A stretch of DNA of 32,000 nt, taken from positions 840,001 through 872,000 of the forward strand of contig OY781871.1 in assembly GCA_963677105.1 (NCBI GenBank). Direction: 5' to 3'. The stretch is from Candidatus Saccharimonadota bacterium. GTDB taxonomy: Bacteria; Patescibacteriota; Gracilibacteria; UBA4473. The notes beneath the pieces were generated by a model. The model made no database searches and was not told the DNA's origin. It saw only the letters and a list, made by a program, of their open reading frames with translations. Made by a program: the position numbers and the translations under genes. This document shows, piece by piece, positions 3,988 to 32,000 of this stretch. Each line of letters starts with the position of its first letter. Positions within the stretch are counted from its first letter, which is position 1.

Positions 3988-4013
3988 AGACAGAGATTAC
4001 TCTGTCTTTTTTT
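3988..4013 (+). terminator. rho-independent terminator
   Basis: AGACAGAG-ATTA-CTCTGTCT forms a perfect 8-bp stem followed by a T6 run, 21 nt after the stop. Confidence 0.75.
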
Positions 4014-4056
4014 ATATCAAAAATTTACGAAATAATATTCCCGCGCTAGACTGTCG

Positions 4057-5824: not shown

Positions 5825-6895
5825 ATGCAAAAATTATTTACAATTTCGATGATTCTTTTAGGAATCAGTGGCGCAGGAGTTTTCCACATTGTTTCAGCAC
5901 AAGACGTAAAAACAATAGAGTTTTTTTCTGATCTCAATGAAGACTCTTTGGTAGGACAAGCTGCTGCAAATTTACGAGAAGCTAATATTATTTCAGGATA
6001 CGATGATGGAACATTTCGTCCAGATCAATCCGTGAATCGAGCAGAGTTAGCAAAGTTTTTACTATTAGCAAAAGGTCGTGATGTAAAAATTAAACATAAT
6101 AATGGTCGTTTCCCAGATGTAAAAGAAGGAGAATGGTATGTGAAATATGTGATTGATGCTGCGGAATTAGGAATTATTAATGGATATCCAAGTGGAAATT
6201 TTAAGCCCGCACAAACGGTAAATACAGCTGAGTTTTTGAAGATGTTGGTGAAAACATTTGATCTCCCAGAAAATTTAATGCAAGACTTTGCAGATGTTGA
6301 TTCAAATGTTTGGTATGCTGCATATGCAGGAAATGTTCCGGAGTGGGATTTGTTTCCAGATCGTGATCCGGCGTTTCTTGAGCCAGCACGAGAAATGACA
6401 CGAGGAGAAGTGGTTGTTGCATTATATCGAATTATGCGCCCGAAATTAGAAGAGATGGATGGTTTTTCGTCAGGTTCTTCAAGTTCCTCAATAACAGGAA
6501 AAACGCTCTCAGTTCGAGCAACAAATGAAAATCCTCAATTGACGATGACATATGCGGGGAAAGCAGAAGAGCTTATTTTACCATTATTAATTTCTGGGAA
6601 AGGAACAATAAAATCATTACAGTTGAAATTAAGTTCTGCTTCATTTCTTGATAAAGCATGGATCGAAGGAGGAGAGAAACAAGCGGCAAATCGTATACGT
6701 ATGACAATTCCAGTAAATCAAGAATTAACAGAAGGGGAAGACACATTGATAGAAATATTTGCGTCCATTCAATCAAGTGGTTTGACTCGAGGAGACAATG
6801 TAAAGGTGTTTTTAGAAAAAGTGGAAGTAGAAGTAAATGGAGAAACACACTTACAGGATTATCCAGTAGATGGATTCGAGTTAATGATTTTTTAG
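5825..6895 (+). CDS. secreted S-layer-homology (SLH) domain protein, three SLH repeats plus C-terminal beta-rich domain
   Basis: Signal peptide MQKLFTISMILLGISGAGVFHIVSAQ begins at ATG 5825 (the track's TTG 5774 is less likely). There are three SLH repeats: FSDL..ISGYDDGTFRPDQSVNRAELAKFLL, FPDV..INGYPSGNFKPAQTVNTAEFLKMLV and FADV..AREMTRGEVVVALYRIM. Confidence 0.8.
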   Translation: MQKLFTISMILLGISGAGVFHIVSAQDVKTIEFFSDLNEDSLVGQAAANLREANIISGYDDGTFRPDQSVNRAELAKFLLLAKGRDVKIKHNNGRFPDVKEGEWYVKYVIDAAELGIINGYPSGNFKPAQTVNTAEFLKMLVKTFDLPENLMQDFADVDSNVWYAAYAGNVPEWDLFPDRDPAFLEPAREMTRGEVVVALYRIMRPKLEEMDGFSSGSSSSSITGKTLSVRATNENPQLTMTYAGKAEELILPLLISGKGTIKSLQLKLSSASFLDKAWIEGGEKQAANRIRMTIPVNQELTEGEDTLIEIFASIQSSGLTRGDNVKVFLEKVEVEVNGETHLQDYPVDGFELMIF

Positions 6896-6956
6896 AAAAT
6901 AAAATTTAAATCTAAAAGAAGGCGAAGTCTTTGGATTTCGCTTTTTTGTATGTGAA

Positions 6957-7610
6957 TTATTTATATTTTGTTACGCCAATTTTGGGGCAGTTTTCTCGAA
7001 GTGGGCAATTATTACAGTGTGGAGTTGGAGCTTTGCAGTAATCACGTCCAAATTGAACCATGCAATGTCCCATCCATGCCCATTTTTCTTTTGGAAATAT
7101 ATTCATGAGTTCTTGTTCAACACGAATTGGATTTCGATTGCTCACAAATCCGAGACGATTTGAAATTTTTAACACATGTGTATCAACCACAAATCCTTCA
7201 TTTTTTCCAAATACTGTTTGAAGTACGACATTTGCCGTTTTCCTTCCAACACCAGGAAGCTGAATCAGTTCTTTCATTGAGCTTGGAAGATTGCCATTGT
7301 GTTCTAAAAGGATTTTTTCTGCTGCGCCACGAAGGCTTTTGGATTTTGTGCGAAAAAAACCAAGCGGTCTAATTGTGTTTTCAAGATCTTCAATAGGTCG
7401 CGCGACAAAAGATTCAAGATCAGGAAAGAGTCTGAAAAGTTGTGGTGTCGTTTTATTTACACGCTTATCGGTGCATTGTGCAGATAAAATTACTGCGAAA
7501 AGTAATGTCCATGGACGTGTTTTGTCCCAATGTAAATGACACTGTTCATTCGGATACAATGTCTCAAAAGTAGAAATGAGTTCGTGAGTGGAAAGTTGTT
7601 TTTTTGCCAT
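6957..7610 (-). CDS. nth: endonuclease III (DNA glycosylase/AP lyase)
   Basis: HhH-GPD motifs (LLFAVILSAQCTDKRVN, LPGVGRKTANVVL) and a C-terminal 4Fe-4S cluster loop C-x6-C-x2-C-x5-C (CKAPTPHCNNCPLRENC). Confidence 0.92.
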   Translation of the reverse strand: MAKKQLSTHELISTFETLYPNEQCHLHWDKTRPWTLLFAVILSAQCTDKRVNKTTPQLFRLFPDLESFVARPIEDLENTIRPLGFFRTKSKSLRGAAEKILLEHNGNLPSSMKELIQLPGVGRKTANVVLQTVFGKNEGFVVDTHVLKISNRLGFVSNRNPIRVEQELMNIFPKEKWAWMGHCMVQFGRDYCKAPTPHCNNCPLRENCPKIGVTKYK

Positions 7611-7640: not shown

Positions 7641-8954
7641 ATGAAGTTAAAATATTTTATATTGATCACAATTTTTGTTCCAACTTTTGTTTTTGCTAGT
7701 TTTGGAGACCGATTTAACTCACTGTTGGAAAATTTTTTTTCTGGAGAAGAGCCAGTTTCTGCAGAAGAAGTTTTATCTGTGCCAGAACCTACACCCCCAA
7801 TAATTTCTGGAGAAGGACCAGTTGATGTAAAAAAAGCAATTCTTCAAGAAGAAGATTCATTACAATCAATTGAGGAAGAATTACGTGAAAATACGAACGT
7901 TTTATTTAAAATCAAAGACGAGCATGATTTAGTACAATATCAATTAGAACAATTAGATAGTGATTTGGCGATTGTTCGAGCGATGCAGGAACAGCGAAAT
8001 AAAGCAGTAAAAAAATGGCAAAATGAATTAGATATTATTACACAGAAAAAATCAGAAATAGATGCGTCTGTACGCCATGAGAACAGAGCTCAAAATGAAT
8101 TATTGAGTAAAAAATTTATACAATCATCTTTAATAAAAAATAATGAGGGATTAAATATTTTACAATGGATTTTTTCAGATAAATCTATTTCTCAGCTCAT
8201 TGAAAAACAGCGACGAGATCAGCATATTGAGTCTTCATTACAGAGTCGAGTCAAACAGTTAAAAAGAGATCAAAAACAGATTGCTGAAGAAGAACAACGC
8301 ATTGCAGCAATTCTCCTTCGTGTACAAGAATTAGAGCGGCAATCTGCAAGACAGCAAATGTTATTAGCGGATTTATTATCCGCGAGAGCAAATGTATTAG
8401 CACGACTAGAGTTTTCACAAGGAGAAACAGAAAACGCAATTGAATCTGCGCGACAACAACAAGTTCAGGCAACACTTGTTTTGCAGGACTTAAGAGAAAA
8501 ATTAAATAATGATGTTTCTGTTAAAACACCAATACAATTAACACAAAAATTAGCTTTTCCTTTAAAAATAGAACCAAAGATTACGGCTCATTTTTTGGAT
8601 CCAGAATATAAAAAAATGTTAGGACGAGATCATTTTGGAACAGATTTTTGGGCACCACAAGGAACGGATATATTTGCTCCAATGGATGGTGTGATCAAAA
8701 AAATTGCTCAAAATGGATATGCATATTCATATCTAATTATCGACCATGGAAATGATTTATTTACTCTTTATGGACATATTTCAGATGCAGTTGTAAAGGA
8801 AGGAGAAGCGGTTGTTCGAGGACAAAAAATTGCAGAAACAGGTGGAACACCAGGATTGCCTGGATCTGGATTTTTTACAACTGGAGCACATTTACATTTT
8901 GAAGTGTTTGCGGGAGGACGACATGTTGATGCAGAAAAATGGTTGAGTCGCTAG
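7641..8954 (+). CDS. secreted M23 family metallopeptidase with long N-terminal coiled coil (EnvC-like architecture)
   Basis: ATG 7641 gives the signal peptide MKLKYFILITIFVPTFVFA and avoids overlap with nth. The coiled-coil-rich middle is followed by intact M23 motifs HFGTD (HxxxD) and GAHLHFEV (HxH). Confidence 0.88.
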   Translation: MKLKYFILITIFVPTFVFASFGDRFNSLLENFFSGEEPVSAEEVLSVPEPTPPIISGEGPVDVKKAILQEEDSLQSIEEELRENTNVLFKIKDEHDLVQYQLEQLDSDLAIVRAMQEQRNKAVKKWQNELDIITQKKSEIDASVRHENRAQNELLSKKFIQSSLIKNNEGLNILQWIFSDKSISQLIEKQRRDQHIESSLQSRVKQLKRDQKQIAEEEQRIAAILLRVQELERQSARQQMLLADLLSARANVLARLEFSQGETENAIESARQQQVQATLVLQDLREKLNNDVSVKTPIQLTQKLAFPLKIEPKITAHFLDPEYKKMLGRDHFGTDFWAPQGTDIFAPMDGVIKKIAQNGYAYSYLIIDHGNDLFTLYGHISDAVVKEGEAVVRGQKIAETGGTPGLPGSGFFTTGAHLHFEVFAGGRHVDAEKWLSR

Positions 8955-8990
8955 CGCTCCAAAATTCAAATTACAAACTACAAATTATAA
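8947..8990 (+). repeat. head + tail intergenic repeat copy (GTCGCTAGCGCTCC AAAATTCAAATTACAAACTACAAATTATAA)
   Basis: The palindromic head CGCTAGCG contains the TAG stop codon (8952-8954) of the M23 peptidase gene. The tail consists of ACAAA-type repeats. Confidence 0.75.
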
Positions 8991-13650: not shown

Positions 13651-13768
13651 GTCAAAGTACAAAGTTCAAAATCGCTTTGCTCTAAAGGCGCGTTGCTTCA
13701 ATGTACAAAGATTAAATAACAAAGAAGAATCTTTTGTACTTTGCACTTTGATATTTGGAGCGAAACGA
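13651..13768. repeat. cluster of head/tail repeat units in both orientations
   Basis: On the + strand: GTCAAAGTACAAAGTTCAAAATCGCTTTGCTC and GCGCGTTGCTTCAATGTACAAAGATTAAATAACAAAG. On the - strand, directly after the trmD stop: CGTTTCGCTCCAAATATCAAAGTGCAAAGTACAAAAG. The opposed CAAAGTACAAAG tracts could pair. Confidence 0.7.
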
Positions 13769-14574: not shown

Positions 14575-15555
14575 ATGAACGATCTGATTCAATCGGCACT
14601 TGCAACAACTGTTGATAAAATATCTTTCTCAGAAGCAAAAGAGCATCATAAAGGGAAAGTGCGAGAAAGTTTTATTCTCAATAATAATCAACGTGCAATT
14701 GTGGTTACTGATCGTATTTCTGCGTTTGATTTTGTTCTTGGAACCGTTCCATTCAAAGGACAAGTTTTGAATCAAATGGCAGCGTGGTGGTTTAAAAAAT
14801 TGGACGGAGTAGTTCCACATCATTTAATTGATGTACCAGATCCAAATATTTCTCTGGTAAAAAACGTAACGCCGTTGCCGATAGAAGTGATTGTTCGCGG
14901 ATATTTGACTGGATCTACGAAAACATCGAGTTGGTATGCATATCAGAATTTAGATCGAATGATTTGCGGAATTGAAATGCCAGAAGGAATGAAAAAGAAT
15001 CAGAAATTTGACACACCATTTATTACACCGACTACAAAACCAACGGAAGAAGGCGCTCATGATGAAAATATTTCTTCAGAAGAAGTAGTTTCTCGTGGAT
15101 TTGTTGACGTGGAAACATGGAAAAAAGCACGGGAATATGCGTTGAAAATGTTTGCTTTGGGGCAAAAAATTGCAGCAGAACATGGATTGATTCTCGTAGA
15201 TACAAAATATGAAATGGGAATGACTTCGGATGGAGAATTGATCGTAATTGATGAAGTTCACACGCCGGATAGTTCTCGTTACTGGATTGCGGACACATAT
15301 CAAGAATTATTTGAAGCAGGAAAATCCCCAGAATCACTTAGTAAAGAGTTTGTGCGTTCTGCGTTAGTTGAAAAAGGATACGATATAGATGATCCAAACG
15401 CTGATCCGGCAGAATATTTGAATGACGAATTACGCATTGCTGCGGCGAAGAAATACGTAGAATTGTACGAAAGAGTTACTGGAGAGAAATTCATTTTCCC
15501 AGAAGACATAGATGCAGAGGGACGGATTGAAAAGGCATTATCAAATATCAAATAA
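14575..15555 (+). CDS. purC: phosphoribosylaminoimidazole-succinocarboxamide (SAICAR) synthase, long form
   Basis: GKVRE, DRISAFD, VRGYLTGS, LILVDTKYEMG and DEVHTPDSSRYW motifs. Confidence 0.92.
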   Translation: MNDLIQSALATTVDKISFSEAKEHHKGKVRESFILNNNQRAIVVTDRISAFDFVLGTVPFKGQVLNQMAAWWFKKLDGVVPHHLIDVPDPNISLVKNVTPLPIEVIVRGYLTGSTKTSSWYAYQNLDRMICGIEMPEGMKKNQKFDTPFITPTTKPTEEGAHDENISSEEVVSRGFVDVETWKKAREYALKMFALGQKIAAEHGLILVDTKYEMGMTSDGELIVIDEVHTPDSSRYWIADTYQELFEAGKSPESLSKEFVRSALVEKGYDIDDPNADPAEYLNDELRIAAAKKYVELYERVTGEKFIFPEDIDAEGRIEKALSNIK

Positions 15556-15675
15556 CAAAGTACAAAGTACAAAGTACAAAGAGTCGTTTCGCTCAAAATA
15601 ACAAATTACAAACTACAAAGTAGTCGCTTCGCTCAAAACTACAGTATTCAAACTACAAAGTTCAAAATTTGAATT
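15556..15675 (+). repeat. largest copy of the intergenic repeat family: (ACAAAGT)x~3.9 perfect tandem heptamers, then two head+tail units
   Basis: The array begins around the purC TAA stop: its first A (15555) is the last base of the stop codon (15553-15555), and this feature is drawn from 15556. Sequence: AACAAAGTACAAAGTACAAAGTACAAAGAG TCGTTTCGCTC AAAATAACAAATTACAAACTACAAAG TAGTCGCTTCGCTC AAAACTACAGTATTCAAACTACAAAGTTCAAAA. Confidence 0.85.
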
Positions 15676-15741
15676 GTCTTTGCGAACGAAGTGAAGCAAT
15701 CTTGGATTACTTCGATTTACTTGTAATAATAAAAAGAACTT

Positions 15742-15815
15742 TGTCATTCTGAACTTGATTCAGGATCTATAAAAATAGTTTTTCGAGTAGATTGCGGATC
15801 AAGTCAACAATGACA
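15742..15815. repeat. imperfect palindromic (MITE/REP-like) element
   Basis: Left arm TGTCATTCTGAACTTGATTCAGGATC (15742-15767) against the reverse complement of the right arm GATTGCGGATCAAGTCAACAATGACA (15790-15815) gives 18/26 matches by hand alignment. A related half-copy lies at 19992-20018. An adjacent hairpin-like GAAGCAATC-TTG-GATTACTTC is at about 15700-15725. Confidence 0.55.
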
Positions 15816-15883
15816 GGAGAAAATTTGGTTTTTATAAAAAACATAAAAAGTGTTATTTAGCTAGTCTTTTTTGAATAAAAAAG

Positions 15884-15912
15884 TTGCACTGTGAATAGAG
15901 AATGCTCAGTAT
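15884..15912 (+). promoter_or_regulatory. putative promoter of pilin cassette 1 (TTGCAC-N17-CAGTAT)
   Basis: The same -35-like box, 17-nt spacing and hexamer are conserved upstream of cassettes 1-3. The -10 match to TATAAT is weak, so the assignment is tentative. Confidence 0.35.
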
Positions 15913-15947
15913 GTATGGGTAAAAATAATTTTTAACATCTCCCAAAA

Positions 15948-16679
15948 ATGAGAAATAAAAACCAACAGAAAGGGTTTACCCTTATTGAGTTGCTAGTGGT
16001 GATCGTGATTCTCGGAATCTTATCAACGATCTCAGTAGGAACATTCCGCTCATACTTCGCAAAAGCGCGAGATTCAGAGCGAGTATCGACAGTACAGAAT
16101 CTGGCGATGATGATGAAAGTAGATTCAGGAGGAAGTGGGGATTGTGGAGTTTATAATTATCAAGCAGCGAGTGGTACAACTCAAGACGCAAGTGGTGTTG
16201 AAACTGGTACATGTTCAAATCTAGGCGTATTGGGTAGTCTTTTGAGTAATAATGATTACGCAATGCCAACATCTAAAAATGGATTAAAATATTATTATGG
16301 ATTTAGATTAGGTGAGACAGAAGGGGATAATGAATTTTTTATTATGATTGGTGCAGAAGAAGAGAATCCACAGAATGGAAAAGCATTGGCTAGTGCTGAT
16401 GCTGGAGATCCTTATGAGTTTGCGTTTGTAGACGGAACTACAGAGGGAATTACAGAAGTAACAGCAAATTGTAATCCTGATAATACGACAGGAGCTCCTG
16501 TCTGTACGGCGAACGTTTGGAATGTTATAGAAATTCTAGATGGAGGAGCATTTGCGGGAACGCCAGCTTGTACGGTTAGTTCAAATAACACAACATTGCC
16601 TTGTGTGTGTGAGGGAGGAGCAACATGTAGTGGAGCGAATTCTTACTGTCAAATTGGTGGTACTTGTACAACGCCATAA
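15948..16679 (+). CDS. type IV pilin-like protein (prepilin N-terminal cleavage/methylation domain), paralog 1, Cys-rich C-terminal module
   Basis: MRNKNQQKG|FTLIELLVVIVILGIL is a class III signal (Gly-1, Phe+1, Glu+5). The core DSGGSGDC..YNY, NNDYAMP..KNGL.YYYGF, TEGDNEFF..GAEEENPQNGK and FVDGTTEGI is shared with the other three paralogs. Total of 10 Cys. Confidence 0.9.
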   Translation: MRNKNQQKGFTLIELLVVIVILGILSTISVGTFRSYFAKARDSERVSTVQNLAMMMKVDSGGSGDCGVYNYQAASGTTQDASGVETGTCSNLGVLGSLLSNNDYAMPTSKNGLKYYYGFRLGETEGDNEFFIMIGAEEENPQNGKALASADAGDPYEFAFVDGTTEGITEVTANCNPDNTTGAPVCTANVWNVIEILDGGAFAGTPACTVSSNNTTLPCVCEGGATCSGANSYCQIGGTCTTP

Positions 16680-16700
16680 GTGTTTTAGAAATTTAAATAA

Positions 16701-16731
16701 AAAAGCTTCTCTGAAAGGGGAAGTTTTTTTT
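16701..16731 (+). terminator. rho-independent terminator of cassette 1
   Basis: AAAAGCTTCTC-TGAAAG-GGGAAGTTTTTTTT forms a stem with one G.U pair followed by a T8 run. Confidence 0.65.
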
Positions 16732-16764
16732 GTGAAAAAAAAGTATTATCTAAATAAAAAAAAG

Positions 16765-16793
16765 TTGCAAAAAAGGATGTAAGATATCAGTAT
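16765..16793 (+). promoter_or_regulatory. putative promoter of pilin cassette 2 (TTGCAA-N17-CAGTAT)
   Basis: Conserved spacing and sequence with cassettes 1 and 3. The downstream leader GGGTAAAAATAATTTTTAA(T/C)ATCTCCCAAAATG is nearly identical to that of cassette 1. Confidence 0.35.
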
Positions 16794-16827
16794 ACACGGG
16801 TAAAAATAATTTTTAATATCTCCCAAA

Positions 16828-17430
16828 ATGAGAAACAAATACCAACAGAAAGGGTTTACCCTTATTGAGTTGCTAGTGGTGATCGTGATTCTCGGAATCT
16901 TATCAACGATCTCAGTAGGAACATTTCGATCGTACTTTGCAAAGGCACGAGATTCAGAGCGAGTATCGACGGTACAGAATATTGCGATGATGATAAAGGT
17001 TGATTCAGGAGGAAGTGGAGACTGTAAGGTATATAATTATGGAAATGGGTTAAAACATACGAGTGGAGATACTATAACTTGTAATGGAGTAGATACATCA
17101 ACATTAAAAACTCTTTTGGAAAACAATGATTATTCAATGCCAAGTGCAAAAAATGGATTAACTTATTATTACGGTTTTAAAATTGGTGCTACAGAAGGAG
17201 ATAATGAATTTTTTGTGGCAGTTGGAGCAGAAGAAGAACATCCACAAAACGGAAAAGAAGAGACTGGAGGTGGAGAATTTATTTTTGTAGATGGAACGAC
17301 AGAAGGAATTGCGGCGGCATTGGCAGGAGATGCTACAATAGATTGTGATGTTGCAGCAGGTGGTGTGATCACTTGTAATGCAACTAATTGGGAATTGTTT
17401 ACGATAGATGATGACGCAGAGCTTTTGTAG
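16828..17430 (+). CDS. type IV pilin-like protein, paralog 2
   Basis: MRNKYQQKG|FTLIELLVV... has the same N-terminus and core blocks. It is 200 aa with 4 Cys, and its C-terminal third is divergent. Confidence 0.9.
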   Translation: MRNKYQQKGFTLIELLVVIVILGILSTISVGTFRSYFAKARDSERVSTVQNIAMMIKVDSGGSGDCKVYNYGNGLKHTSGDTITCNGVDTSTLKTLLENNDYSMPSAKNGLTYYYGFKIGATEGDNEFFVAVGAEEEHPQNGKEETGGGEFIFVDGTTEGIAAALAGDATIDCDVAAGGVITCNATNWELFTIDDDAELL

Positions 17431-17451
17431 TAATGGAACAATTTAAGAAAG

Positions 17452-17478
17452 AACTTCCTCGAAAGGGGAAGTTTTTTT
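17452..17478 (+). terminator. rho-independent terminator of cassette 2
   Basis: AACTTCCTC-GAAA-GGGGAAGTT followed by T7. The hairpin sequence is conserved with the cassette 3 terminator. Confidence 0.75.
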
Positions 17479-17563
17479 CAGATAAAGGAGAAATAGTGGA
17501 TTAAATTAATTTATAAAAAAACATAAAAATTACATTTTTGCTATCTTTTTTTGAATAAAAAAT

Positions 17564-17592
17564 TTGCACTAAGGATAGAGAATGTTCAGTAT
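17564..17592 (+). promoter_or_regulatory. putative promoter of pilin cassette 3 (TTGCAC-N17-CAGTAT)
   Basis: The roughly 120-bp upstream region (TATAAAAAAACATAAAAA...TTTTTTGAATAAAAAATTTGCACTAAGGATAGAGAATGTTCAGTATGTAT) is a close copy of 15833-15915. Confidence 0.35.
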
Positions 17593-17625
17593 GTATCAGT
17601 AAAAATACTTTATAACATTTTCAAA

Positions 17626-18249
17626 ATGAGAAATAAAAACCAACAGAAGGGGTTTACCCTTATCGAGTTGCTGGTGGTGATCGTGATTCTCGGAATCTTG
17701 TCAACGATCTCAGTAGGAACATTCCGATCGTACTTCGCAAAAGCACGAGATTCAGAGCGAGTATCAACGGTACAAAATTTAGCGATGATGATGAAAGTAG
17801 ACTCTGGAGGACATGGAGATTGTACAGTGTATAATTATAAAGGGAATGGTGCAGGGTGTGCAACAACAGGTGTGGGTGTATTAGATACTGTACTGAAAGC
17901 GTTATTGACAAATAATGATTACTCAATGCCCGAAGCGAAAAACGGATTAGTTTATCATTATGCATTTTATGAAGGAGATACGGAAGGAGATAATGAATTT
18001 TTTGTTATGGTTGGGGCAGAAGAAGATAATCCACAAAATGGAAAACAATCTGGTGCAGGAGAATATATTTTTGTAGATGGAACAACAAAGGGAATTGCTT
18101 CGGCTACAAAAGGCGAAGCAACTGCTACGGGAACGGATCCAGGAGGTTGTACTATTGTGAGTGGGGCACCAACGTGTTTTACTAATTGGTCAACATATAC
18201 TATTAATTCAGATGGCGAATTGACGCTTCTCGTGGCAGCAACAACATAG
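17626..18249 (+). CDS. type IV pilin-like protein, paralog 3
   Basis: True start is ATG 17626 (MRNKNQQKG|FTLIELL), by homology with paralogs 1 and 2. The track's TTG 17551 reads through the promoter region. 207 aa with 4 Cys. Confidence 0.9.
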   Translation: MRNKNQQKGFTLIELLVVIVILGILSTISVGTFRSYFAKARDSERVSTVQNLAMMMKVDSGGHGDCTVYNYKGNGAGCATTGVGVLDTVLKALLTNNDYSMPEAKNGLVYHYAFYEGDTEGDNEFFVMVGAEEDNPQNGKQSGAGEYIFVDGTTKGIASATKGEATATGTDPGGCTIVSGAPTCFTNWSTYTINSDGELTLLVAATT

Positions 18250-18263
18250 AATATTATTTAATA

Positions 18264-18296
18264 AAAAAAACTTCCTCGAAAGAGGAAGTTTTTTTA
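18264..18296 (+). terminator. rho-independent terminator of cassette 3
   Basis: AAAAAAAACTTCCTC-GAAA-GAGGAAGTTTTTTT forms a perfect 9-bp stem with flanking A-run and T-run. Confidence 0.8.
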
Positions 18297-18335
18297 TTAG
18301 GAATAAAATTAAACACAGGTTCTAAAATATGTAAG

Positions 18336-18364
18336 TTGTAATTTTACTTATTTGTATTTATAGT
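18336..18364 (+). promoter_or_regulatory. putative promoter of pilin cassette 4 (TTGTAA-N17-TATAGT)
   Basis: Good sigma70-like spacing and a good -10 box. The sequence is unrelated to the promoters of cassettes 1-3. Confidence 0.45.
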
Positions 18365-18386
18365 GTGAAAGTATAAAAACATTCAG

Positions 18387-19085
18387 ATGAAACACGTATT
18401 AAAAAAATCAGGTTTCACGCTAATAGAATTACTTGTTGTAATTGTTATTTTAGGAATCTTATCAACGATATCCGTTGGTACATTCCGATCATATTTCGCG
18501 AAAGCTCGAGATGCGGAACGAGTATCAGCGGTTCAGAATATGGCGATGATGATTAAAGTAGATTCTGGTGGAGCAGGAGATTGTACAGTTTATAATTATA
18601 CAGACGATACTATTTTTCCAGATGGTTCAACTTGTCCAGATGCTTCATATTTGGCTTTTGGTCAGTTATTGAATAGTAATGATTTTAAAATGCCGAATTC
18701 AAAAAATGGATTAAACTACCATTATGCATTTTTGCCGGGAGCGACAGAAGGAGATAATGATTTCTTTATCGCCGTTGGAGCAGAAGAAAGTAATGCTGCT
18801 AATGGAATATTACAAGATGCTGGTACGGGGTTTTCTATTTTTGCAGATGGAACATCAGCTGGAATAGATATTGCACCTACTTGTATATGGACGAATGGAA
18901 ATTTAGTTAGTTGTGCGAATGTTGTAGAGGGAGCAGTAACAAGAGTATGGGAATTTCAAGCATTAACTGCAGGACTAAATGGTTGTTGGATTGGTAATTG
19001 TGTGGGTTGTACGGGAACCACAACGCAGTATTGTGTAGATGTTGGATGTAGTACAAGTGGTACTGATTGTGTAGATCCGGTGTAA
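18387..19085 (+). CDS. type IV pilin-like protein, paralog 4 (divergent leader, Cys-rich C-terminal module)
   Basis: MKHVLKKSG|FTLIELLVVIVILGILSTISVGTFRSYFAKARD shares the same 34 aa as paralog 1 but with different codons. The core blocks are conserved (DSGGAGDCTVYNY, KNGLNYHYAF, TEGDNDFF). Total of 10 Cys. No terminator follows, and its TAA stop overlaps the next ATG (TAATG). Confidence 0.9.
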   Translation: MKHVLKKSGFTLIELLVVIVILGILSTISVGTFRSYFAKARDAERVSAVQNMAMMIKVDSGGAGDCTVYNYTDDTIFPDGSTCPDASYLAFGQLLNSNDFKMPNSKNGLNYHYAFLPGATEGDNDFFIAVGAEESNAANGILQDAGTGFSIFADGTSAGIDIAPTCIWTNGNLVSCANVVEGAVTRVWEFQALTAGLNGCWIGNCVGCTGTTTQYCVDVGCSTSGTDCVDPV

Positions 19086-19939
19086 TGTCAAAAAAATGGA
19101 TTTGGTTGCGAGTAAGTCAAATATTATTAGACACATTAATTGTGTGGGGAATGTTTCTGCTTGCATACTTTGTGCGAGTACATTGGATATTTTCAACAGA
19201 TTTCCCATTTACATTATTTGCATTGCTTTCTGGTGCAGCAACGCTTGTATGGATCGCGTTTCTCGCGTTTGTAAAAGCATATCGACTTCCACCACGTTCA
19301 GGAGTGCGTTCGTGGTATGATATCGTTTTAATTATCGCTGGAGGAATTATTGCCGTTGGATTTTTAATTGTTTCGTACTTCTTTCCCCGCGAAATATTAT
19401 TTTCTCGTTTAATTGGAGTATATGCGTTCTTATTCGGTGCATTGTGGCTTATTTGTTCACAAAAGATATTTCGATTTTTTCTGGGACGATCAAAGAAAGC
19501 CGGAAAAGGATATAAAACATTGATTATTGGTGCGAATCGCGTTTCAGAGCAATTTGTTTCTCGTGTAAAAGCAGATTCGTTTGCACCATTTCAAATTATG
19601 GGAGTGATTGATCCGTATGGTTTAGCGAAAAAATTTAAAGGAGCTTTATTACTCGGGAAACTTGATCAATTAGAAAAAGTTTGTGAACGAGAAAAAATTA
19701 CGGCGATTGTGCAATGTGACGCATTTGAGCACACTCTTTCGCTTGTTTCGTTTTGTGAAGAACATGATATCAAGTTTCAATTTTTGCCTTCATTGAGAGG
19801 TGTTTTTGAGGATAATTTACGATTACGTGAGATTGCTGGAGTTCGTGTAGGATCACTCGTTCAGCGAAATTATTCAGGAATTAAAAGAACAAAATTTCAT
19901 TTAATTGATTGGCTTTTGGGGCAGGTTTTAGATATTTAG
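19085..19939 (+). CDS. N-terminal fragment of a WbaP/EpsB-type polyprenyl-phosphate glycosyl-1-phosphate transferase (membrane + Rossmann-like domain; catalytic Bac_transf domain absent); possible pseudogene
   Basis: Four N-terminal TM helices are followed by YKTLIIGANRVSEQFVSRV...IMGVIDP...LLGKLDQLEKVCEREKITAIVQCD, which is the CoA_binding_3-like region of large PGTs. The ORF ends at ...GIKRTKFHLIDWLLGQVLDI*, where the KRxxDxxxxxxxL start of the catalytic domain normally begins. No continuation is found downstream in any frame. Confidence 0.6.
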   Translation: MSKKWIWLRVSQILLDTLIVWGMFLLAYFVRVHWIFSTDFPFTLFALLSGAATLVWIAFLAFVKAYRLPPRSGVRSWYDIVLIIAGGIIAVGFLIVSYFFPREILFSRLIGVYAFLFGALWLICSQKIFRFFLGRSKKAGKGYKTLIIGANRVSEQFVSRVKADSFAPFQIMGVIDPYGLAKKFKGALLLGKLDQLEKVCEREKITAIVQCDAFEHTLSLVSFCEEHDIKFQFLPSLRGVFEDNLRLREIAGVRVGSLVQRNYSGIKRTKFHLIDWLLGQVLDI

Positions 19940-19990
19940 TCGCTAGCGTTTCAATGTACAAATTACAAAGTGCAAAGTACAAAACTTTTC
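19940..19990 (+). repeat. head + tail repeat copy (TCGCTAGCGTT TCAATGTACAAATTACAAAGTGCAAAGTACAAAAC); its last 27 nt form the left arm of a perfect inverted repeat
   Basis: Starts 1 nt after the TAG stop at 19937-19939. 19964-19990, TACAAAGTGCAAAGTACAAAACTTTTC, is the exact reverse complement of 20511-20537. Confidence 0.85.
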
Positions 19991-20114
19991 ATGTCATTTC
20001 AAACTTGATTTGGAATATATTTGAAAAGTGAAAAATTTATTAAAATTTTTCCTGAAGAAAGTTTCTTTATGAAACTTGTTTTGCAATAAATATGTCATCT
20101 TTAATTTTTTAAAC

Positions 20115-20486
20115 ATGACTGATTCTTCAAAAAACATTCTCATTCAAAAAACATACGTTTTTGCGCTAAGAATAGTGAAACTTTCTCAATTTTTAATACA
20201 AGAAAAAAAAGAATATATCCTTTCAAAACAAATACTTCGTTCAGGAACTTCAATTGGAGCAAACACAGAAGAGTCTATGGGAGGACAATCTAAAAAAGAT
20301 TTTTTTTCAAAATTATCGATTGCATACAAAGAAGCTCGTGAAACAAAATATTGGCTGCATCTTTTACAAGACTCAAATTATATTTCATTTAATCAAGCCT
20401 CTTCAATTTTAAATGATTGTGAAGAAATTTTGAAAATTTTAGGGAAAACTCTTTCAACCATTCGCAAAAAACAGTCAATAAAATAA
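20115..20486 (+). CDS. four-helix-bundle protein of the 23S rRNA intervening-sequence protein / Avd-like family
   Basis: KTYVFALRIVKL....SKQILRSGTSIGANTEE......DFFSKLSIAYKEARETKYWLHLL is the characteristic pattern of the TIGR02436/PF05635-type family. ATG 20115 is preferred to the track's TTG 20076. Confidence 0.85.
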   Translation: MTDSSKNILIQKTYVFALRIVKLSQFLIQEKKEYILSKQILRSGTSIGANTEESMGGQSKKDFFSKLSIAYKEARETKYWLHLLQDSNYISFNQASSILNDCEEILKILGKTLSTIRKKQSIK

Positions 20487-20510
20487 AAATTTAACTAGAT
20501 TCCAAGACAG

Positions 20511-20545
20511 GAAAAGTTTTGTACTTTGCACTTTGTACACTGATA
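20511..20545 (-). repeat. repeat-family tail copy in reverse orientation; right arm of the 27-bp inverted repeat
   Basis: GAAAAGTTTTGTACTTTGCACTTTGTA (20511-20537) is the exact reverse complement of 19964-19990. It lies 14 nt downstream of the gyrB stop on the - strand. Confidence 0.85.
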
Positions 20546-20551
20546 TCTGAT

Positions 20552-22471
20552 TCAGATGTCTAGGTCTTGAACCTCAGAAGCGTGAGATTGGATAAATTTT
20601 CGACGAGGAAGTACATCATCTCCCATCAACACTTTAAATACATGATCAGCGCGTTCTGCGTCTGAAATGGTTACTTGTAAAAGAGTTCGATTTTCAGGAT
20701 TCATTGTAGTTTCCCAGAGTTGATCTGCATTCATTTCTCCCAAACCTTTATAACGTTGAATACTATCTCCTTTTATATCATGTTCAGTTGCAATTTTATC
20801 TCGTTCTTCTTCTGTTAGAGCGTACCAAACTTGTTTTCCTTTCGCTAGTTTAAACAAAGGTGGTTGTGCGATATAAATATGACCCGCTTCTACAAGCTGA
20901 GGAAAGTGACGGTAGAGGAATGTAAGCAATAATGTTCGAATATGAGCACCATCAACATCAGCGTCGGTCATGATCACAACTTTATGATATCGAAGTTTAT
21001 CAATATTGAATTCTTGTCCAATAGCCGTACCAAGAGCAATAATAAGGTTTTTAACCTCAGTATTTGCAAGCATTTTTTCGAGTCGACAGTTTTCTGTATT
21101 AAGAATTTTACCTCGTAAAGGCAAAATAGCTTGTGTACGACGATCTCGACCTTGTTTAGCAGTTCCACCAGCAGAATCTCCCTCAACAATGTATACTTCA
21201 CATTCAGAAGGATTTTTTGAACTACAGTCAGAAAGTTTTCCGGGAAGAGTAAGTCCTTCCAGTGCACCTTTTCGAATAACTGTATCACGAGCTGCACGAG
21301 CCGCAAGTCGAGCACGAGTTGCTAATGCGCATTTATTGATAATAGATTTCGCGTCATCTGGATTTTCTGCCAAATATTCCGTAAGTTTTTCTGAAACTAT
21401 TCGATCCACGGATCCTCGAACAGCAGAATTTCCCAACTTTGATTTTGTTTGTCCTTCAAATTGTGGTTCAGGAATTTTAACACTCACAACAGCAGTCAAT
21501 CCTTCATGAACATCATCATTTGTAAAATTGGGATCTTTGTCTTTTAGCAGACTATTATCACGGGCATATTTATTTAAAACACGAGTAAGTGCTGTATTAA
21601 ATCCTGTAACATGAGTTCCGCCTTCAATAGTTTGAATATTATTAGCAAAAGATTGAAGTGTCTCTCGAAACTGCATTGTGTATTGTAATGCAATTTCTAC
21701 AGAAATATTTTCTCGTTCTTCGTTTATAGCAATAACAGGAGAAATAGCGTCTTCTCCATTATTTATGTGACGAACAAAGGATTCAATTCCTCCTTCAAAA
21801 TAAAACTGACATACCTGTGGAATCCATTTTTTTTCTTCATCATTCCGTTCATCTCTAAATGTAATAGTTACACCACGAGTGAGGTATGCTTGCTGTCGTA
21901 TTCGTTTTTTAATAGCATCAAATTCAAAATCTAGTGTTTCAAAAATGGCAGGATCTGGCCAAAAATGAACTAATGTTCCTTGACGTGTTTGTTCTCCGAT
22001 TTTAGCCAAAGGTTCTGCTGGTGCTCCACTTTCAAATGCGACAAAGTATTTTCCTCCATCACGATCGACCGTTACTTCTGTACGGATAGAAAGAGCATTT
22101 ACAACACTTACTCCAACTCCATGAAGTCCTCCTGATACTTTATATCCACCACCACCAAATTTTCCACCAGCGTGAAGAACTGTCAAAACAGTTTCCACAG
22201 CAGAGATTCCAGTTTGTTTATGTTTTTCTACAGGAATTCCACGTCCATTATCTGCAACAGAACAACTTCCGTCTTCATGAATTGTTACTTCAATATGAGA
22301 ACAGTGTCCCGCCATTGCTTCATCAATTGCATTGTCTAAAACTTCCCAAATTAAGTGGTGTAAACCACGTACATCAGTAGATCCGATATACATTCCTGGT
22401 CGCTTTCGAACTGGATCAAGACCTTCGAGTACTTGAATCGAACTGGCATCGTATGTTGATTGTGTGTTCAT
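20552..22471 (-). CDS. gyrB: DNA gyrase subunit B
   Basis: Full-length GHKL ATPase (LEGLDPVRKRPGMYIGST, HHLIWEVLDNAIDE, GLHGVG), Toprim (EVYIVEGDSAGG, IMTDADVDGAHI) and a C-terminal tail. ATG 22471 (MNTQ...) is preferred to the TTG at 22483. Confidence 0.95.
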   Translation of the reverse strand: MNTQSTYDASSIQVLEGLDPVRKRPGMYIGSTDVRGLHHLIWEVLDNAIDEAMAGHCSHIEVTIHEDGSCSVADNGRGIPVEKHKQTGISAVETVLTVLHAGGKFGGGGYKVSGGLHGVGVSVVNALSIRTEVTVDRDGGKYFVAFESGAPAEPLAKIGEQTRQGTLVHFWPDPAIFETLDFEFDAIKKRIRQQAYLTRGVTITFRDERNDEEKKWIPQVCQFYFEGGIESFVRHINNGEDAISPVIAINEERENISVEIALQYTMQFRETLQSFANNIQTIEGGTHVTGFNTALTRVLNKYARDNSLLKDKDPNFTNDDVHEGLTAVVSVKIPEPQFEGQTKSKLGNSAVRGSVDRIVSEKLTEYLAENPDDAKSIINKCALATRARLAARAARDTVIRKGALEGLTLPGKLSDCSSKNPSECEVYIVEGDSAGGTAKQGRDRRTQAILPLRGKILNTENCRLEKMLANTEVKNLIIALGTAIGQEFNIDKLRYHKVVIMTDADVDGAHIRTLLLTFLYRHFPQLVEAGHIYIAQPPLFKLAKGKQVWYALTEEERDKIATEHDIKGDSIQRYKGLGEMNADQLWETTMNPENRTLLQVTISDAERADHVFKVLMGDDVLPRRKFIQSHASEVQDLDI

Positions 22472-22540
22472 ATGGGGTTCCAAAAATTGTGTCGCGAGAA
22501 TTGTACCGGTTTTAGATGTTTGAGCAAGAGAAAATAGGCA

Positions 22541-22582
22541 CTTCGTTTCAAATTACAAAGAGTAAAGAACAAAGTGCAAAAT
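22541..22582 (+). repeat. head + tail repeat copy (CTTCGTTTC AAATTACAAAGAGTAAAGAACAAAGTGCAAAA)
   Basis: Located in the gyrB/ybaB divergent spacer. Confidence 0.6.
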
Positions 22583-22607
22583 ATTGTTAAAATCTGCGCT
22601 TAATACA

Positions 22608-22646
22608 TTGTTATTTGTACTTTGGAGTGAAGCGAATTTCGCTTGG
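22608..22646 (-). repeat. head + tail repeat copy, reverse orientation
   Basis: The reverse complement reads CCAAGCGAAATTCGCTTCACTCCAAAGTACAAATAACAA. The head contains the AAGCGA-ATT-TCGCTT hairpin. Confidence 0.6.
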
Positions 22647-26569: not shown

Positions 26570-26646
26570 TGGTGAGCGATACAGGATTTGAACCTGTGAC
26601 TTCCTGCAAGTCAAGCAGGCGCTCTAGCCAACTGAGCTAATCGCTC
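26570..26646 (-). tRNA. tRNA-Val (anticodon GAC), CCA encoded
   Basis: Hand-folded cloverleaf from the reverse complement: GAGCGAT TA GCTC AGTTGGCTA GAGC G CCTGC TTGACTT GCAGG AAGTC ACAGG TTCAAAT CCTGT ATCGCTC A CCA. All four stems are fully paired. Length 77 nt. Confidence 0.9.
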
Positions 26647-29293: not shown

Positions 29294-29309
29294 GACGAGA
29301 AAATCACAC

Positions 29310-29338
29310 TTGAAAAAAAGATACATATAAGGTATAAT
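29310..29338 (+). promoter_or_regulatory. putative promoter of the giant ORF (TTGAAA-N17-TATAAT)
   Basis: Consensus -10 box, near-consensus -35 box and optimal 17-nt spacing. It ends 22 nt upstream of ATG 29361. Confidence 0.5.
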
Positions 29339-29360
29339 AACAGGATTTTTAGCCAAAATC

Positions 29361-32000
29361 ATGAAAAATTTATACCAGTATTCGGCAAAAGAGAATCTTG
29401 CGAAATTTATTTTCATGGGAGGACAGACTTTCCGGGAGGATAGACCAAACGAACGAGATGATGTTCAAGATGGGAAAGCGAAAATGGAAGAACTTGTTTT
29501 AGCTGAAATTCAAGATGACTTGACCGAATTAAAGGGAAGCGTTCTTGATCGATATGCGGTTTACGATGCAGTTAGAACGGGGGGTGATAGAGAAGTGTAT
29601 AAACAAAGGGATGGAACTTTTATTTTAGAAGATCCCGATAATGATGAGAAAATTATTTTCAAACAAGGGGAAGAATTGAAAATAAAAGATGGGAAAAGGA
29701 ATCGTTCATTAAAAATTGATCTTAAAAACGATATAGTTAAGGAAAATGTTGGGTTTGAATTAGAACAGAAAGAAGATATAGAACAAGAAAAAATAGAGTA
29801 TAAAACAGAATCACTGAGAATTTTAGCTCAATATATTACCATTCGAGAAGATGGATACAGTCTTGATTTACATAGAGTAAAAGGAAGTGATACACCGAAA
29901 TTGTATGAAGCACTACGGGCGGTTGCTGACGATGAAAAATTGTCAATAGATGAGAGAAAGGATGTGTTACAAAAAATTGTTGATAGATTTCAAAAATATA
30001 CGGGAGATGAAGATAATAAAGAATTGTCAGATTTAGTAGCGGAGGCTCAAAAACATCTTAATACACTCAATGGAGTAGAAAAACCAGAAGAAAAGAAACC
30101 TGAAGCGACTTCAAAACAAGAAACAGTTGTGGCTGCAACCACTTCTGTTCCAGAAAAAAAAGAAACTGAGGCTGAAAAACAGGCTCGATTAGAACAAGAT
30201 AAGAAAGTCTTAGAAGACAAAGAGGCAGAAAGAAAAGCAAATGAGGAGAGAAAAGCCGCTCATGAAAATTTAGACAATGCACGAAAATTATTGGATAGCA
30301 TTGATTTTACTACATTAGATATAACAACTTATCAAGAATTTCAAGGGAAGTTAAATGAAATACATACACCAGTTCTTATTGCTGAGGAAGAAGGGAAAAA
30401 ATTCCCAGAATTAAAAGAAGATGCACTGAAATTAAAAAGTGATTTTGATGAAGCACGAAATAAAGTGGGAATTTATGAAAGGGGTGCAGGAGAACAAGAG
30501 AGAGTAGAAAAGAAATATCAAAAGAAAACGGAGGAGCAATTACAAGCAATGGATACAAAGATTGAGGATGAAGTGAAATTGTTTCAGGCAAAATTAGAAG
30601 AATTAGAGAAAAAACCAGAAAACTTACCAGAATCGCCTTTGTCTTTGGAACCAGCGGATCCTAAAACATTAGAGCAAATTCAGCAAGGAATGATGAGCCA
30701 CAGAACAGAATCTATGAAAACGTTAGAAGAAATAAATTTTCTTCAAGAATGTTCACAAGAATTAGGAGAAAAAATTGCAAAATTTGAAGAAAAAAAATCA
30801 GCCTTTACATTAGGAAATGTTGGACGATTTGTTGGTTCCTCAATTGCGATTTTACCCGGAATGGCCGTTGATCTAACAATGAAAGTTGGAGGTTGGTTTG
30901 GATTAAATCCTCAGAACAAACGAAGTATAGATGTTGCTGAAAAAATGTTCGGCGTAAAAAGTCCTGCTGCAGAATTACGGAAAGAAAAAGAGGCCTTTGA
31001 GATAAGTTTTGCAGAAAAACAACAAGTACTTGCAGGAAAGAAATCAGAATTAGATTCATATGGAAAAACATTGTCAACCAATTCGGAATCACTCAGAGCG
31101 AGTGCTCCAAATGATGTACGAACTTCTGTACGAAATGGTTTGATAGAAGATTTGCCAAAAGGTGCAGATCCAAATGTTGAGCCATGGAAAGGAATGATTG
31201 ATAAGATTACGGGAGAAGTCGAAGGAACAACGATTGCACAAGTTGCATCAGCGGTAGATCAGCTAGATATGAACGTAGATGGTTCTGTTTCAGAATTAAC
31301 AGAAGCAACAGGAGGGTCACTAGGAAGTCTTAATGATTCTTTAGAATATATTAAAACACTTGATATTACATCTGCAACAGCACTAGATATGTCGGTTGGA
31401 TTCTTAACAAAAAATGTAGCAAAAGTATTGGATGTATCAGGAGATTTCCTTGCAAAAATTCCAGTATTAGGTTTGGTTGGAGGAGTTCTTCGTGGAGCTG
31501 GAGGAATGATTGACGGAATTGGTTCAATGATTACCGATCCATGGAGTGTAGTAGAAGGATTAGGTGCACTTGTTGGTATTCCAAATGGATTAAAAGCAGC
31601 AGGAGAAGCATGGAAAGGATTGGGAATGGGGCTTTTTGCGGGAGAAGCATGGAGTGATATGGCAAAAGCATTTAAAGAAGGAGATTTAATGACTGCGTGG
31701 GGAGAAATGTCTGCGGCAGTTGGTGAAGTAGGATTAAATGTTGCGGCTACATTCTTTACTGGAGGAGCTGCTGCAGGAGCTCGTGGAGGAGCTGTTGCAG
31801 GACGAATTGGTAAAATGACATCAGCTATTTCTAAAGTTGCTACAAACATTCCAGGAGCGCGTTTTGCGGCACGTGCAGCTAAATGGACTTCAAAGACACG
31901 TGGAGTTCGTTATATAGGAAAAGCTGGAGATGTTATTCTTACTCCAATGAGATGGGGATTAAAACCATTGAAAGGATTAGGGAAATTTGGTACCAAAATA
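29361..32000 (+). CDS. 5' part (at least 880 codons) of a very large protein: charged/coiled-coil N-terminal ~480 aa, then hydrophobic and Gly/Ala-rich (glycine-zipper-like) segments; runs off the right edge
   Basis: Hand translation from ATG 29361 to 32000 has no stop codon (2640 nt, exactly 880 codons). It is absent from the ORF track only because it is open-ended. The 196-aa antisense ORF at 31259..31849 is its Ala/Pro-rich shadow. Confidence 0.8.
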   Translation, partial: MKNLYQYSAKENLAKFIFMGGQTFREDRPNERDDVQDGKAKMEELVLAEIQDDLTELKGSVLDRYAVYDAVRTGGDREVYKQRDGTFILEDPDNDEKIIFKQGEELKIKDGKRNRSLKIDLKNDIVKENVGFELEQKEDIEQEKIEYKTESLRILAQYITIREDGYSLDLHRVKGSDTPKLYEALRAVADDEKLSIDERKDVLQKIVDRFQKYTGDEDNKELSDLVAEAQKHLNTLNGVEKPEEKKPEATSKQETVVAATTSVPEKKETEAEKQARLEQDKKVLEDKEAERKANEERKAAHENLDNARKLLDSIDFTTLDITTYQEFQGKLNEIHTPVLIAEEEGKKFPELKEDALKLKSDFDEARNKVGIYERGAGEQERVEKKYQKKTEEQLQAMDTKIEDEVKLFQAKLEELEKKPENLPESPLSLEPADPKTLEQIQQGMMSHRTESMKTLEEINFLQECSQELGEKIAKFEEKKSAFTLGNVGRFVGSSIAILPGMAVDLTMKVGGWFGLNPQNKRSIDVAEKMFGVKSPAAELRKEKEAFEISFAEKQQVLAGKKSELDSYGKTLSTNSESLRASAPNDVRTSVRNGLIEDLPKGADPNVEPWKGMIDKITGEVEGTTIAQVASAVDQLDMNVDGSVSELTEATGGSLGSLNDSLEYIKTLDITSATALDMSVGFLTKNVAKVLDVSGDFLAKIPVLGLVGGVLRGAGGMIDGIGSMITDPWSVVEGLGALVGIPNGLKAAGEAWKGLGMGLFAGEAWSDMAKAFKEGDLMTAWGEMSAAVGEVGLNVAATFFTGGAAAGARGGAVAGRIGKMTSAISKVATNIPGARFAARAAKWTSKTRGVRYIGKAGDVILTPMRWGLKPLKGLGKFGTKI

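Follow-up and report, generated by a model that had tools for sequence, protein, structure and literature searches.

The window analyzed here is a 32,000-nt stretch of contig OY781871.1 (assembly GCA_963677105.1, positions 840,001 to 872,000) from a Candidatus Saccharimonadota bacterium. In this window, the spacer between a transferase-like gene (19067..19939, plus strand) and the convergent gyrB gene (20552..22483, minus strand) carries a cassette that consists of one small gene bracketed by inverted arrays of tandem heptamers. The gene (20115..20486, plus strand) encodes a four-helix-bundle (4HB) protein of 123 aa and is the single credible gene within the 520-nt loop of the inverted repeat. 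Its product belongs to the PF05635/TIGR02436 family, known as the "23S rRNA intervening sequence (IVS) protein" family: it matches PF05635 with E 3e-28 (98.5 bits against a cut-off of 33.8, profile positions 3-105 of 106), TIGR02436 with E 4e-32 (110.7 bits, cut-off 24), and PDB 2RLD with E 1.4e-30 (109 bits). PF05635 is the sole Pfam match of the cassette's central gene, with no Y1 (IS200/IS605-like) transposase. The published motif consensus (G-x2-)R-x3-S-x3-N-x2-E (PMC3936711) is represented in the 4HB translation by RSGTSIGANTEE, the leading G being without a counterpart. The gene is preceded by a leader (19996..20114, plus strand), whose final ~40 nt before the ATG are conserved in the alignment of relatives. 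The scan of the plus strand for consensus promoters and terminators yielded no sigma-70-like promoter and nothing above chance. No close relative was found in viral contigs.

The arms of the cassette form a perfect 27-bp inverted repeat, in which positions 19964-19990 (TACAAAGTGCAAAGTACAAAACTTTTC) are the exact reverse complement of positions 20511-20537. If one mismatch is allowed, pairing extends to 32 nt at 97% (19964-19995 and 20506-20537), leaving an interval of 510-520 nt between the arms. The left arm (19964..19995, plus strand) reads TACAAAG TGCAAAG TACAAAA and continues into a non-heptamer extension, CTTTTC(ATGTC). The right arm (20506..20537, minus strand) is the reverse complement of the left one and lies 14 nt from the gyrB stop codon, in the sense orientation for gyrB. 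The arm heptamer is the NNCAAAN repeat that is dispersed in the window, and the inverted repeat reaches 6-11 nt past the heptamers. The 27-mer occurs in the window in two copies only, even with up to three mismatches, and in none of 100 dinucleotide-preserving shuffles; the cassette has the best inverted repeat of the whole 32 kb. Since the arms are made of the genome's common repeat, other pairs of heptamer arrays are a fairer yardstick than shuffled sequence, and the runner-up among these pairs 26 nt at 92% (13732-13757 with 19959-19984). In the RNA fold of positions 19940-20560 (621 nt), the arms make the closing stem of 27+4 bp in both the minimum free energy (MFE) and the centroid structure, with an MFE of -136.6 kcal/mol versus -102.2 +/- 6.2 in shuffles (z = -5.6). 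No target-site duplication is visible next to the arms, although repetitive arms would mask a short one. An earlier sequence-only reading of this window had described a perfect inverted repeat built from copies of the dispersed heptamer around a lone gene of the 23S-IVS or Avd type, and had suggested folding the transcript; the description holds in every one of these respects, and the fold is closed by the arms.

To place the cassette in an evolutionary context, the same site was compared in related Peribacteria (Peregrinibacteriota) of the candidate phyla radiation (CPR); an exact look-up of the window's protein had given no record, and relatives were used in its place. The 4HB gene lies between the transferase-like gene and gyrB in seven lineages, namely the window, P0003 (locus L001), P0004 (L014), P0006 (L006), P0008 (L106), P0010 (L108), and P0012 (L105), among which the gyrB genes differ at 8-30% of nucleotides. 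An eighth lineage with the gene at this site, P0002, had no DNA available and was left out of the comparison of arms. All seven lineages with DNA have inverted heptamer arms of 31-49 nt with 74-97% complementarity: 97% over 32 nt in the window, 88% over 43 nt in L001, 79% over 47 nt in L006, 78% over 49 nt in L014, 91% over 32 nt in L105, 74% over 31 nt in L106, and 79% over 33 nt in L108. The arm sequence itself has turned over among the lineages (ACAAAGT, ACAAACT, CAAACTT, CAGACTT, and others). Thus, the gene and its inverted heptamer arms are a unit that has been kept across seven lineages at this site, and the case that the sequence-only reading had named as contrary evidence, an ORF in the lineage without flanking inverted repeats, was not encountered here. 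In P0011, an 80%-identical gene resides at another locus, in the order dnaE, NTP-transferase, 4HB, and has a weak inverted repeat only.

Deeper relatives lack the cassette unit at the corresponding position, which is the presence/absence variation that the sequence-only reading had proposed to look for. In L010 the spacer is 100 bp long and contains only a small CTACAAA...TTTGTAG hairpin; no period-7 arrays were found in 12.9 kb of this locus. In L012, a 'Gracilibacteria' metagenome-assembled genome, the corresponding region (6846-7219) has a 366-bp non-coding spacer with 37-nt heptamer-like inverted arms of the AACATCG type. These arms enclose a strongly structured non-coding insert of 300 nt (z = -4.5), for which a scan against Rfam gave no match; it may be an ORF-less element at the same kind of site. 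No 4HB coding remnants were found in the empty sites of L010 and L012, and therefore these sites cannot be called decayed cassettes. A part of the L012 insert (6938-6975, GTCATCCTGAGC...GAAGGACC) resembles positions 15735-15775 of the window (GTCATTCTGAAC...GATTCAGGATC).

The orientation of the cassette differs among lineages. The 4HB gene points the same way as the transferase-like gene (forward) in the window, P0002, P0006, and P0008, and the same way as gyrB (inverted) in P0003, P0004, P0010, and P0012. When L006 is aligned with L001 by blastn, the flanks are collinear while the central 556 bp are inverted at 83.6% identity. Within the arms, the two kinds of match overlap, which places the breakpoints there. 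The leader of ~120 nt flips together with the gene in the inverted relatives, as seen both in the alignment and in the blastn mapping, and the outer "TAGTCGCTAGCGCTCC" boxes stay beside the stop codons of the host genes. The tree of the flanking genes, ((L001,L006),L014), is supported by 116 informative sites versus 30 and 34 for the alternatives and by 100% bootstrap. Because L001 (inverted) and L006 (forward) are sisters and L014 (inverted) falls outside, at least two inversions are required. Thus, two or more flips of the inter-arm DNA are shown, and their breakpoints fall within the arms. The sequence-only reading had considered an excisable cassette; what the comparison documents is inversion rather than excision. 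Within a lineage the orientation is uniform (5/5 independent contigs of P0003 and 4/4 of P0006), which argues against rapid switching. Since the host genes are convergent, the cassette has a co-directional upstream gene in either orientation.

The bracketed layout is not confined to this site. A metagenome scan provided 80 loci with 4HB homologues at 51-85% identity, and in 62 of them the flanks were long enough for a bracket test, in which the upstream flank is aligned to the reverse complement of the downstream flank. The inverted-repeat score was at least 15 in 52 of these 62 loci, which include some near-duplicates and are not 62 independent cases, versus 7-10 for shuffled flanks. Control ORFs from the same loci (n = 120) had a median score of 9, and only four of them reached 15. 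Two of the four are one gene similar to the REP-associated tyrosine transposases (RAYTs) and flanked by classical repetitive extragenic palindromic (REP) units, and serve as a positive control; the other two come from a contig most of whose spacers are occupied by heptamer hairpins. With few exceptions, the arms consist of tandem heptamers (AATTACG, AATTAGG, AAGAATT, AACAATG, CAGTTAA, etc.); 66 of 70 loci have such heptamers in their flanks. An array typically has 3-5 units with a conserved core and variable positions and lies close against the ORF. The polarity of the arms is fixed relative to the ORF, the A/purine-rich arm being 5' and its complement 3': in 51/54 loci the sense strand is rich in purines at the 5' arm. 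Most of the 80 loci have arrays in the 4HB flanks only, without dispersed copies.

Homologues on named plasmids extend this layout to other phyla; it is clear in five of the six that were inspected (Cyanobacteria, Bacteroidota, Firmicutes, and Spirochaetota). Euhalothece pEu1 has (CCAGTGA)n upstream and (GTCACTG)x13 downstream of the gene, Bernardetia has (TAGTGAT)x17, Nostoc punctiforme pNPUN01 has AAGTCGG/AGGTCGG, and Treponema saccharophilum has a clear heptamer bracket. On a plasmid of Monoglobus pectinilyticus (L104), the 4HB gene with its flanking heptamer arrays is located between hsdS and hsdR of a type I restriction-modification operon. In Anabaena cylindrica pANACY.01 (L103), it is located between cas2 and cas1 on the opposite strand, and the heptamer arrays are less regular. 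Hence, the inverted-heptamer bracket is a general property of the 4HB family across phyla, a point that the sequence-only reading did not make.

The genomic context of the homologues is informative as well. None of the 80 loci lies in an rRNA gene according to Rfam. Five of the 80 are beside or between co-oriented tRNA genes (L028 3885-4605, L029 2852-3474, L035 3886-4348, L056 2505-3102, and L060 995-1515), so that these cassettes lie inside stable-RNA transcription units. The upstream neighbor is co-directional in 60/65 loci, versus a same-locus baseline of ~0.81 (p about 0.01-0.02).

Two side observations come from the same contigs. L087 (2100-3013), and likewise L092, contains a weak IS200-like Y1 transposase ORF with tandem palindromic REP-like units of 47-54 nt; this classical REPtron, the name given to a RAYT (Y1 transposase) gene flanked by inverted REP/REPIN sequences, sits 1 kb from a 4HB cassette. 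In L039 (4350-6700), as in L023, L030, and L057, which are CPR-like contigs with PrgI-family genes, an (AATTACG)n ... (AATTCGT)n hairpin occupies nearly every spacer; contigs of this type are a second lineage with heptamer arrays spread through intergenic DNA.

In the window, all heptamer arrays of three or more units are intergenic. Arrays matching the arms lie at 3480, 8960, 13653/13733, 14461, 15542-15666, 22549/22614, and 22999. The first array past a stop codon is in the sense orientation in 7/7 cases. The left arm of the cassette is accordingly sense for the transferase-like gene, as the right one is for gyrB, and the 4HB gene is the only gene of the window with an antisense array behind it, this array being the sense array of gyrB. 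Many arrays have a GC-rich box in front. The resulting composite repeat (family D3) consists of the box (A/G)GTCGCTWGCGCT(C/T) followed by 3-5 heptamers, often begins at or inside a stop codon, and has copies at 3460-3499, 8947-8986, 15536-15661 (including 15582 and 15622), 19940-19987, and 22536-22575. The copy at the cassette starts with the outer box and degenerate heptamers (TCGCTAGCG TTTCAATGTACAAAT; 19940..19963, plus strand) directly after the stop codon of the transferase-like gene, and a matching box flanks the cassette in the relatives L006, L014, and L001. The largest single-orientation array of heptamers and boxes (15537..15666, plus strand) is located behind the SAICAR synthetase gene. 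Two inverted pairs contain no ORF: a hairpin at 13653..13757 (minus strand), which shares 19 identical bases with the arms (CAAAGTGCAAAGTACAAAA) and has a stem of ~20 bp (z = -2.1), and a pair at 22536..22626 (plus strand) between the start codons of gyrB and ybaB. Both look like miniature cassettes. Canonical intrinsic terminators coexist with the arrays in the window (12826, 17448, 18264), and thus the arrays do not simply replace them.

The neighborhood of the cassette has the following gene order: four type IV pilin-like genes, a transferase-like ORF of 290 aa, the 4HB gene, convergent gyrB, ybaB, and yceG; the synteny of gyrB is kept in all relatives. The transferase-like ORF matches PF13727 and positions 1-266 of 445 of TIGR03025, and its domain content identifies it as the N-terminal (CoA_binding_3) part of a polyprenyl glycosylphosphotransferase; it is a conserved stand-alone ORF. 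The sequence-only reading had raised the possibility that an IVS-like element inserted and truncated this gene, and this proposal has to be abandoned. The orthologues have 282-313 aa, with the CoA_binding_3 domain only, at the same place in every relative examined. ORFs of this length are also present where no 4HB gene adjoins (287 aa in L010, 287 aa in L011, and 306 aa in L012), and therefore the transferase-like gene was not cut by the element. Among the window ORFs scanned against Pfam, a set that excludes a long ORF crossing the window end, there is no reverse transcriptase, recombinase/invertase, or transposase domain. The Rfam scan of the window gave a tRNA at 26573-26646 as its sole match, with no family at the cassette.

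Several other features of the window can be mentioned. The four pilin-like genes (15836-19085) are tandem paralogs with the N_methyl motif; a repeated region lies upstream of each, and their intrinsic terminators are nearly identical (AACTTCCTCGAAAGGGGAAGTTTTTTT). In relatives, the number of copies is 2-5. The long ORF that crosses the window end occupies ~29300-32000 on the plus strand and accounts for the apparently ORF-poor region at 29.25-31.25 kb; a 196-aa minus-strand ORF overlapping it (31259-31849) is probably spurious.

On balance, and with modest confidence, we read the feature as an IVS-type 4HB cassette that resides outside rRNA, in which the gene and a short conserved leader are held between inverted heptamer arrays in a spacer of convergent genes. 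The cassette would probably be transcribed mostly by read-through from its co-directional neighbor. By analogy with the IVSs of Coxiella and Leptospira, the arms of the transcript may pair into a duplex of 27-32 bp, and cleavage of the duplex by RNase III could then free an ORF-bearing RNA of ~0.55 kb and separate, or insulate, the host transcript. At the DNA level, the same arms may serve as substrates for homologous recombination or template switching, which would both flip the cassette and maintain the similarity of the arms; recent homogenization is the simplest explanation for the perfect 27 bp seen in this genome. We favor the IVS-like model because of the Coxiella precedent, the length of the duplex (27-32 bp), the occurrence of cassettes in operons and stable-RNA units, and the slight excess of co-directional upstream neighbors.

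A number of observations fit this interpretation poorly. On the sense strand, G.U-compatible mismatches in the arms number 73 versus 84 of the A.C type (p = 0.42). In the absence of a G.U excess there is no signature of selection on an RNA helix, although the helix itself is not excluded. A plain RNA-stem model does not explain the 7-nt periodicity with its conserved core, nor does it explain the single-orientation arrays that lie in other spacers of this genome and are unable to pair. Toward their outer ends, the arms act like the usual 3'-flank arrays of the host genes on either side. The conserved 40-nt leader could be the site of the cassette's own promoter, and the 4HB genes of cyanobacterial plasmids often have a divergent upstream neighbor.

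A less probable alternative, but a serious one, is that the 4HB protein and the heptamers form a cognate protein-repeat system resembling that of RAYT and REP, in which the protein recognizes its own heptamer array as DNA or RNA. The dispersed arrays would then be further targets that are regulated, maintained, or spread, and the stem would be a by-product of opposed binding arrays. This scenario is compatible with the IVS-type reading. It accounts for periodic arms with a conserved core and variable positions, usually in 3-5 units, and agrees with their fixed polarity relative to the ORF and with the lack of a sense-strand G.U bias. The dispersal of the heptamer through many spacers here, and the lack of period-7 arrays at the empty site of L010, point the same way. 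Solved relatives of the 4HB protein are pentameric nucleic-acid-binding toroids, although arrays range from 3 to more than 15 units and a simple match of a pentamer to five repeats is thus not general. In two contigs, divergent paralogs located a few kb apart have different heptamers: GTGGTAA and AATTACG in L070 (genes at 2005-2355 and 4001-4348), and AATTTTC and AATTACG in L039 (973-1308 and 4001-4372). Across loci, cassettes with more distant heptamers encode more divergent proteins (Spearman rho -0.35, permutation p <= 0.0005), protein identity being 62% for pairs with the same heptamer versus 50-52% at a heptamer distance of 4-5, but this correlation is confounded by the shared ancestry of the gene and its flanks. 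The bracket test also flagged the classical REPtron in L087, which indicates that the layout marks such systems. Heptamer arrays have been published for Xanthomonas, Nostoc, Beggiatoaceae, and Bacteroidetes, and Nostoc and other cyanobacteria as well as Bacteroidota are also among the 4HB matches. On the other hand, recognition of the arrays by the 4HB protein is putative, no enzymatic activity is known for the family, and dispersed arrays are lacking in the majority of the 80 loci.

That the layout is a coincidence seems improbable. Under this explanation, the arms would be nothing more than the sense 3'-flank arrays that the convergent host genes usually have, the 4HB gene would be one ordinary gene in the spacer, and the repeat would have no role of its own. 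The consistent sense orientation of the first array past each stop codon, with each arm being sense for its own host gene, is what this would predict; the box motif remains with the host genes when the cassette inverts, and the empty site in L010 retains a small CTACAAA...TTTGTAG pair. However, the bracket also surrounds homologues in unrelated genomes whose neighbors lack arrays (52/62 loci versus 4/120 controls), and paralogs on one contig have heptamers of their own. Moreover, the inverted repeat of the window, the best in 32 kb, continues past the heptamers, and the arms have been kept in seven lineages despite the turnover of their sequence.

The existence of both orientations among close relatives, with breakpoints in the arms, could also suggest a programmed switch, that is, phase variation moving the 4HB gene between two transcription units. 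We regard this as very unlikely and reject it: a segment bounded by inverted repeats and found both ways round does recall fimS and the hin/gin-type systems, but here there is no recombinase, invertase, or transposase domain in the scanned ORFs, the arms consist of degenerate arrays and not of defined recombination sites, the orientation is constant within lineages, and the flips are evolutionary events, not switching within populations. Least plausible of all, and likewise rejected, is the idea that the gene was left over from a diversity-generating retroelement (DGR) or is its accessory gene (Avd), since, although Avd has a homologous four-helix-bundle fold in the same superfamily (PF05635) and DGRs are common in CPR bacteria, the cassette has no reverse transcriptase among the scanned ORFs of the window, no template/variable pair of direct repeats near the 4HB gene, and no close relative in viral contigs.

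A broader hypothesis, which we consider possible but put forward only tentatively, is that the S23p/TIGR02436 4HB proteins and the heptamer arrays are two halves of one widespread system. In such a system, each paralog would have its cognate heptamer and the gene would travel bracketed by it, while in a subset of genomes (those of Peribacteria, of certain other CPR lineages, and possibly of Nostoc, Xanthomonas, and Beggiatoaceae) the arrays would have spread through intergenic DNA and into stable-RNA genes. If this is true, ORF-bearing rRNA IVSs, repeats of the short tandemly repeated repetitive (STRR) type, and 4HB cassettes are products of one kind of element. Two puzzles that are decades old are involved: the role of the "23S rRNA IVS protein" family, whose members number in the thousands and are frequently found within operons, CRISPR-cas loci, and restriction-modification loci, and the purpose of the abundant bacterial heptamer repeats. 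The physical coupling of the 4HB gene with heptamer arrays in CPR, Cyanobacteria, Bacteroidota, Firmicutes, and Spirochaetota bears on both, as do the difference of heptamers between cassettes and the fact that the Coxiella rRNA IVS is made of the same parts. For this window, the analysis corrects the story of a gene-truncating insertion and shows that, in very small CPR genomes, a segment the size of a gene has inverted repeatedly. The family-wide bracketing is of more interest than the single locus.

The cassette can be compared with three known types of elements. The first type is dispersed heptamer arrays. Intergenic TAACTGA arrays are known from Beggiatoaceae, cyanobacteria, and Bacteroidetes (PMC4679880), and arrays from Xanthomonas and Nostoc include 70-75 convergent inverted pairs in Xanthomonas (PMC4692102); the function of both is unknown. 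The window arrays resemble TAACTGA, GGGAATC (Xanthomonas), and GGGGAYT/STRR (Nostoc/Anabaena) in being tandem 7-nt repeats, almost exclusively intergenic, and biased in orientation relative to genes; convergent inverted pairs, as at the cassette, are frequent in Xanthomonas. STRR heptamers were reportedly also found within cyanobacterial RNase P RNA genes, according to the title of a 1997 paper. Unlike the published arrays, which the respective papers do not link to 4HB genes, the arrays of the cassette bracket such a gene. Our literature search found no published link between PF05635/TIGR02436 genes outside rRNA and heptamer or inverted repeats, which is not proof of novelty.

The second type is the REPtron. 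Here, too, inverted copies of a repeat that is dispersed through the intergenic DNA of the same genome stand on both sides of a single gene, paralogs are associated with different types of the repeat, and ORF-less hairpin copies occur elsewhere in the genome. The differences are that the cassette encodes a small four-helix-bundle protein for which no catalytic activity is known, not a Y1 transposase, and that the repeats of the cassette are tandem 7-mers, whereas REPs are palindromic units of ~35 nt.

The third and closest type is the ORF-bearing IVS of 23S rRNA in Coxiella and Leptospira, a likeness that the sequence-only reading had already pointed out and that the comparison upholds. The cassette differs from IVSs of 23S and 16S rRNA in that it lies between two convergent protein-coding genes rather than in an rRNA helix, and it differs from those of 23S rRNA in that it has inverted repeatedly. 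Excision by RNase III, known for rRNA IVSs of Coxiella and others, is proposed for the cassette by analogy only. Published PF05635 ORFs lie within cas loci (PMC3936711) as well as within insertions in the rRNA of CPR bacteria (PMC11270868). The shared features are the protein family, the size of the element (~0.43-0.55 kb), the terminal inverted repeats forming a stem of ~28 bp, and a sporadic distribution, which for the IVSs suggests horizontal spread (PMC4990558). The Coxiella burnetii IVS has 428-444 nt and a 28-bp terminal stem that is cut by RNase III in vitro, and its S23p ORF is preceded by 2-3 GACAGAT heptamers with a strain-variable copy number (PMC4990558), so that in Coxiella, as in the window with its heptamers of the TACAAAG type, tandem heptamers adjoin the ORF of a 4HB protein.

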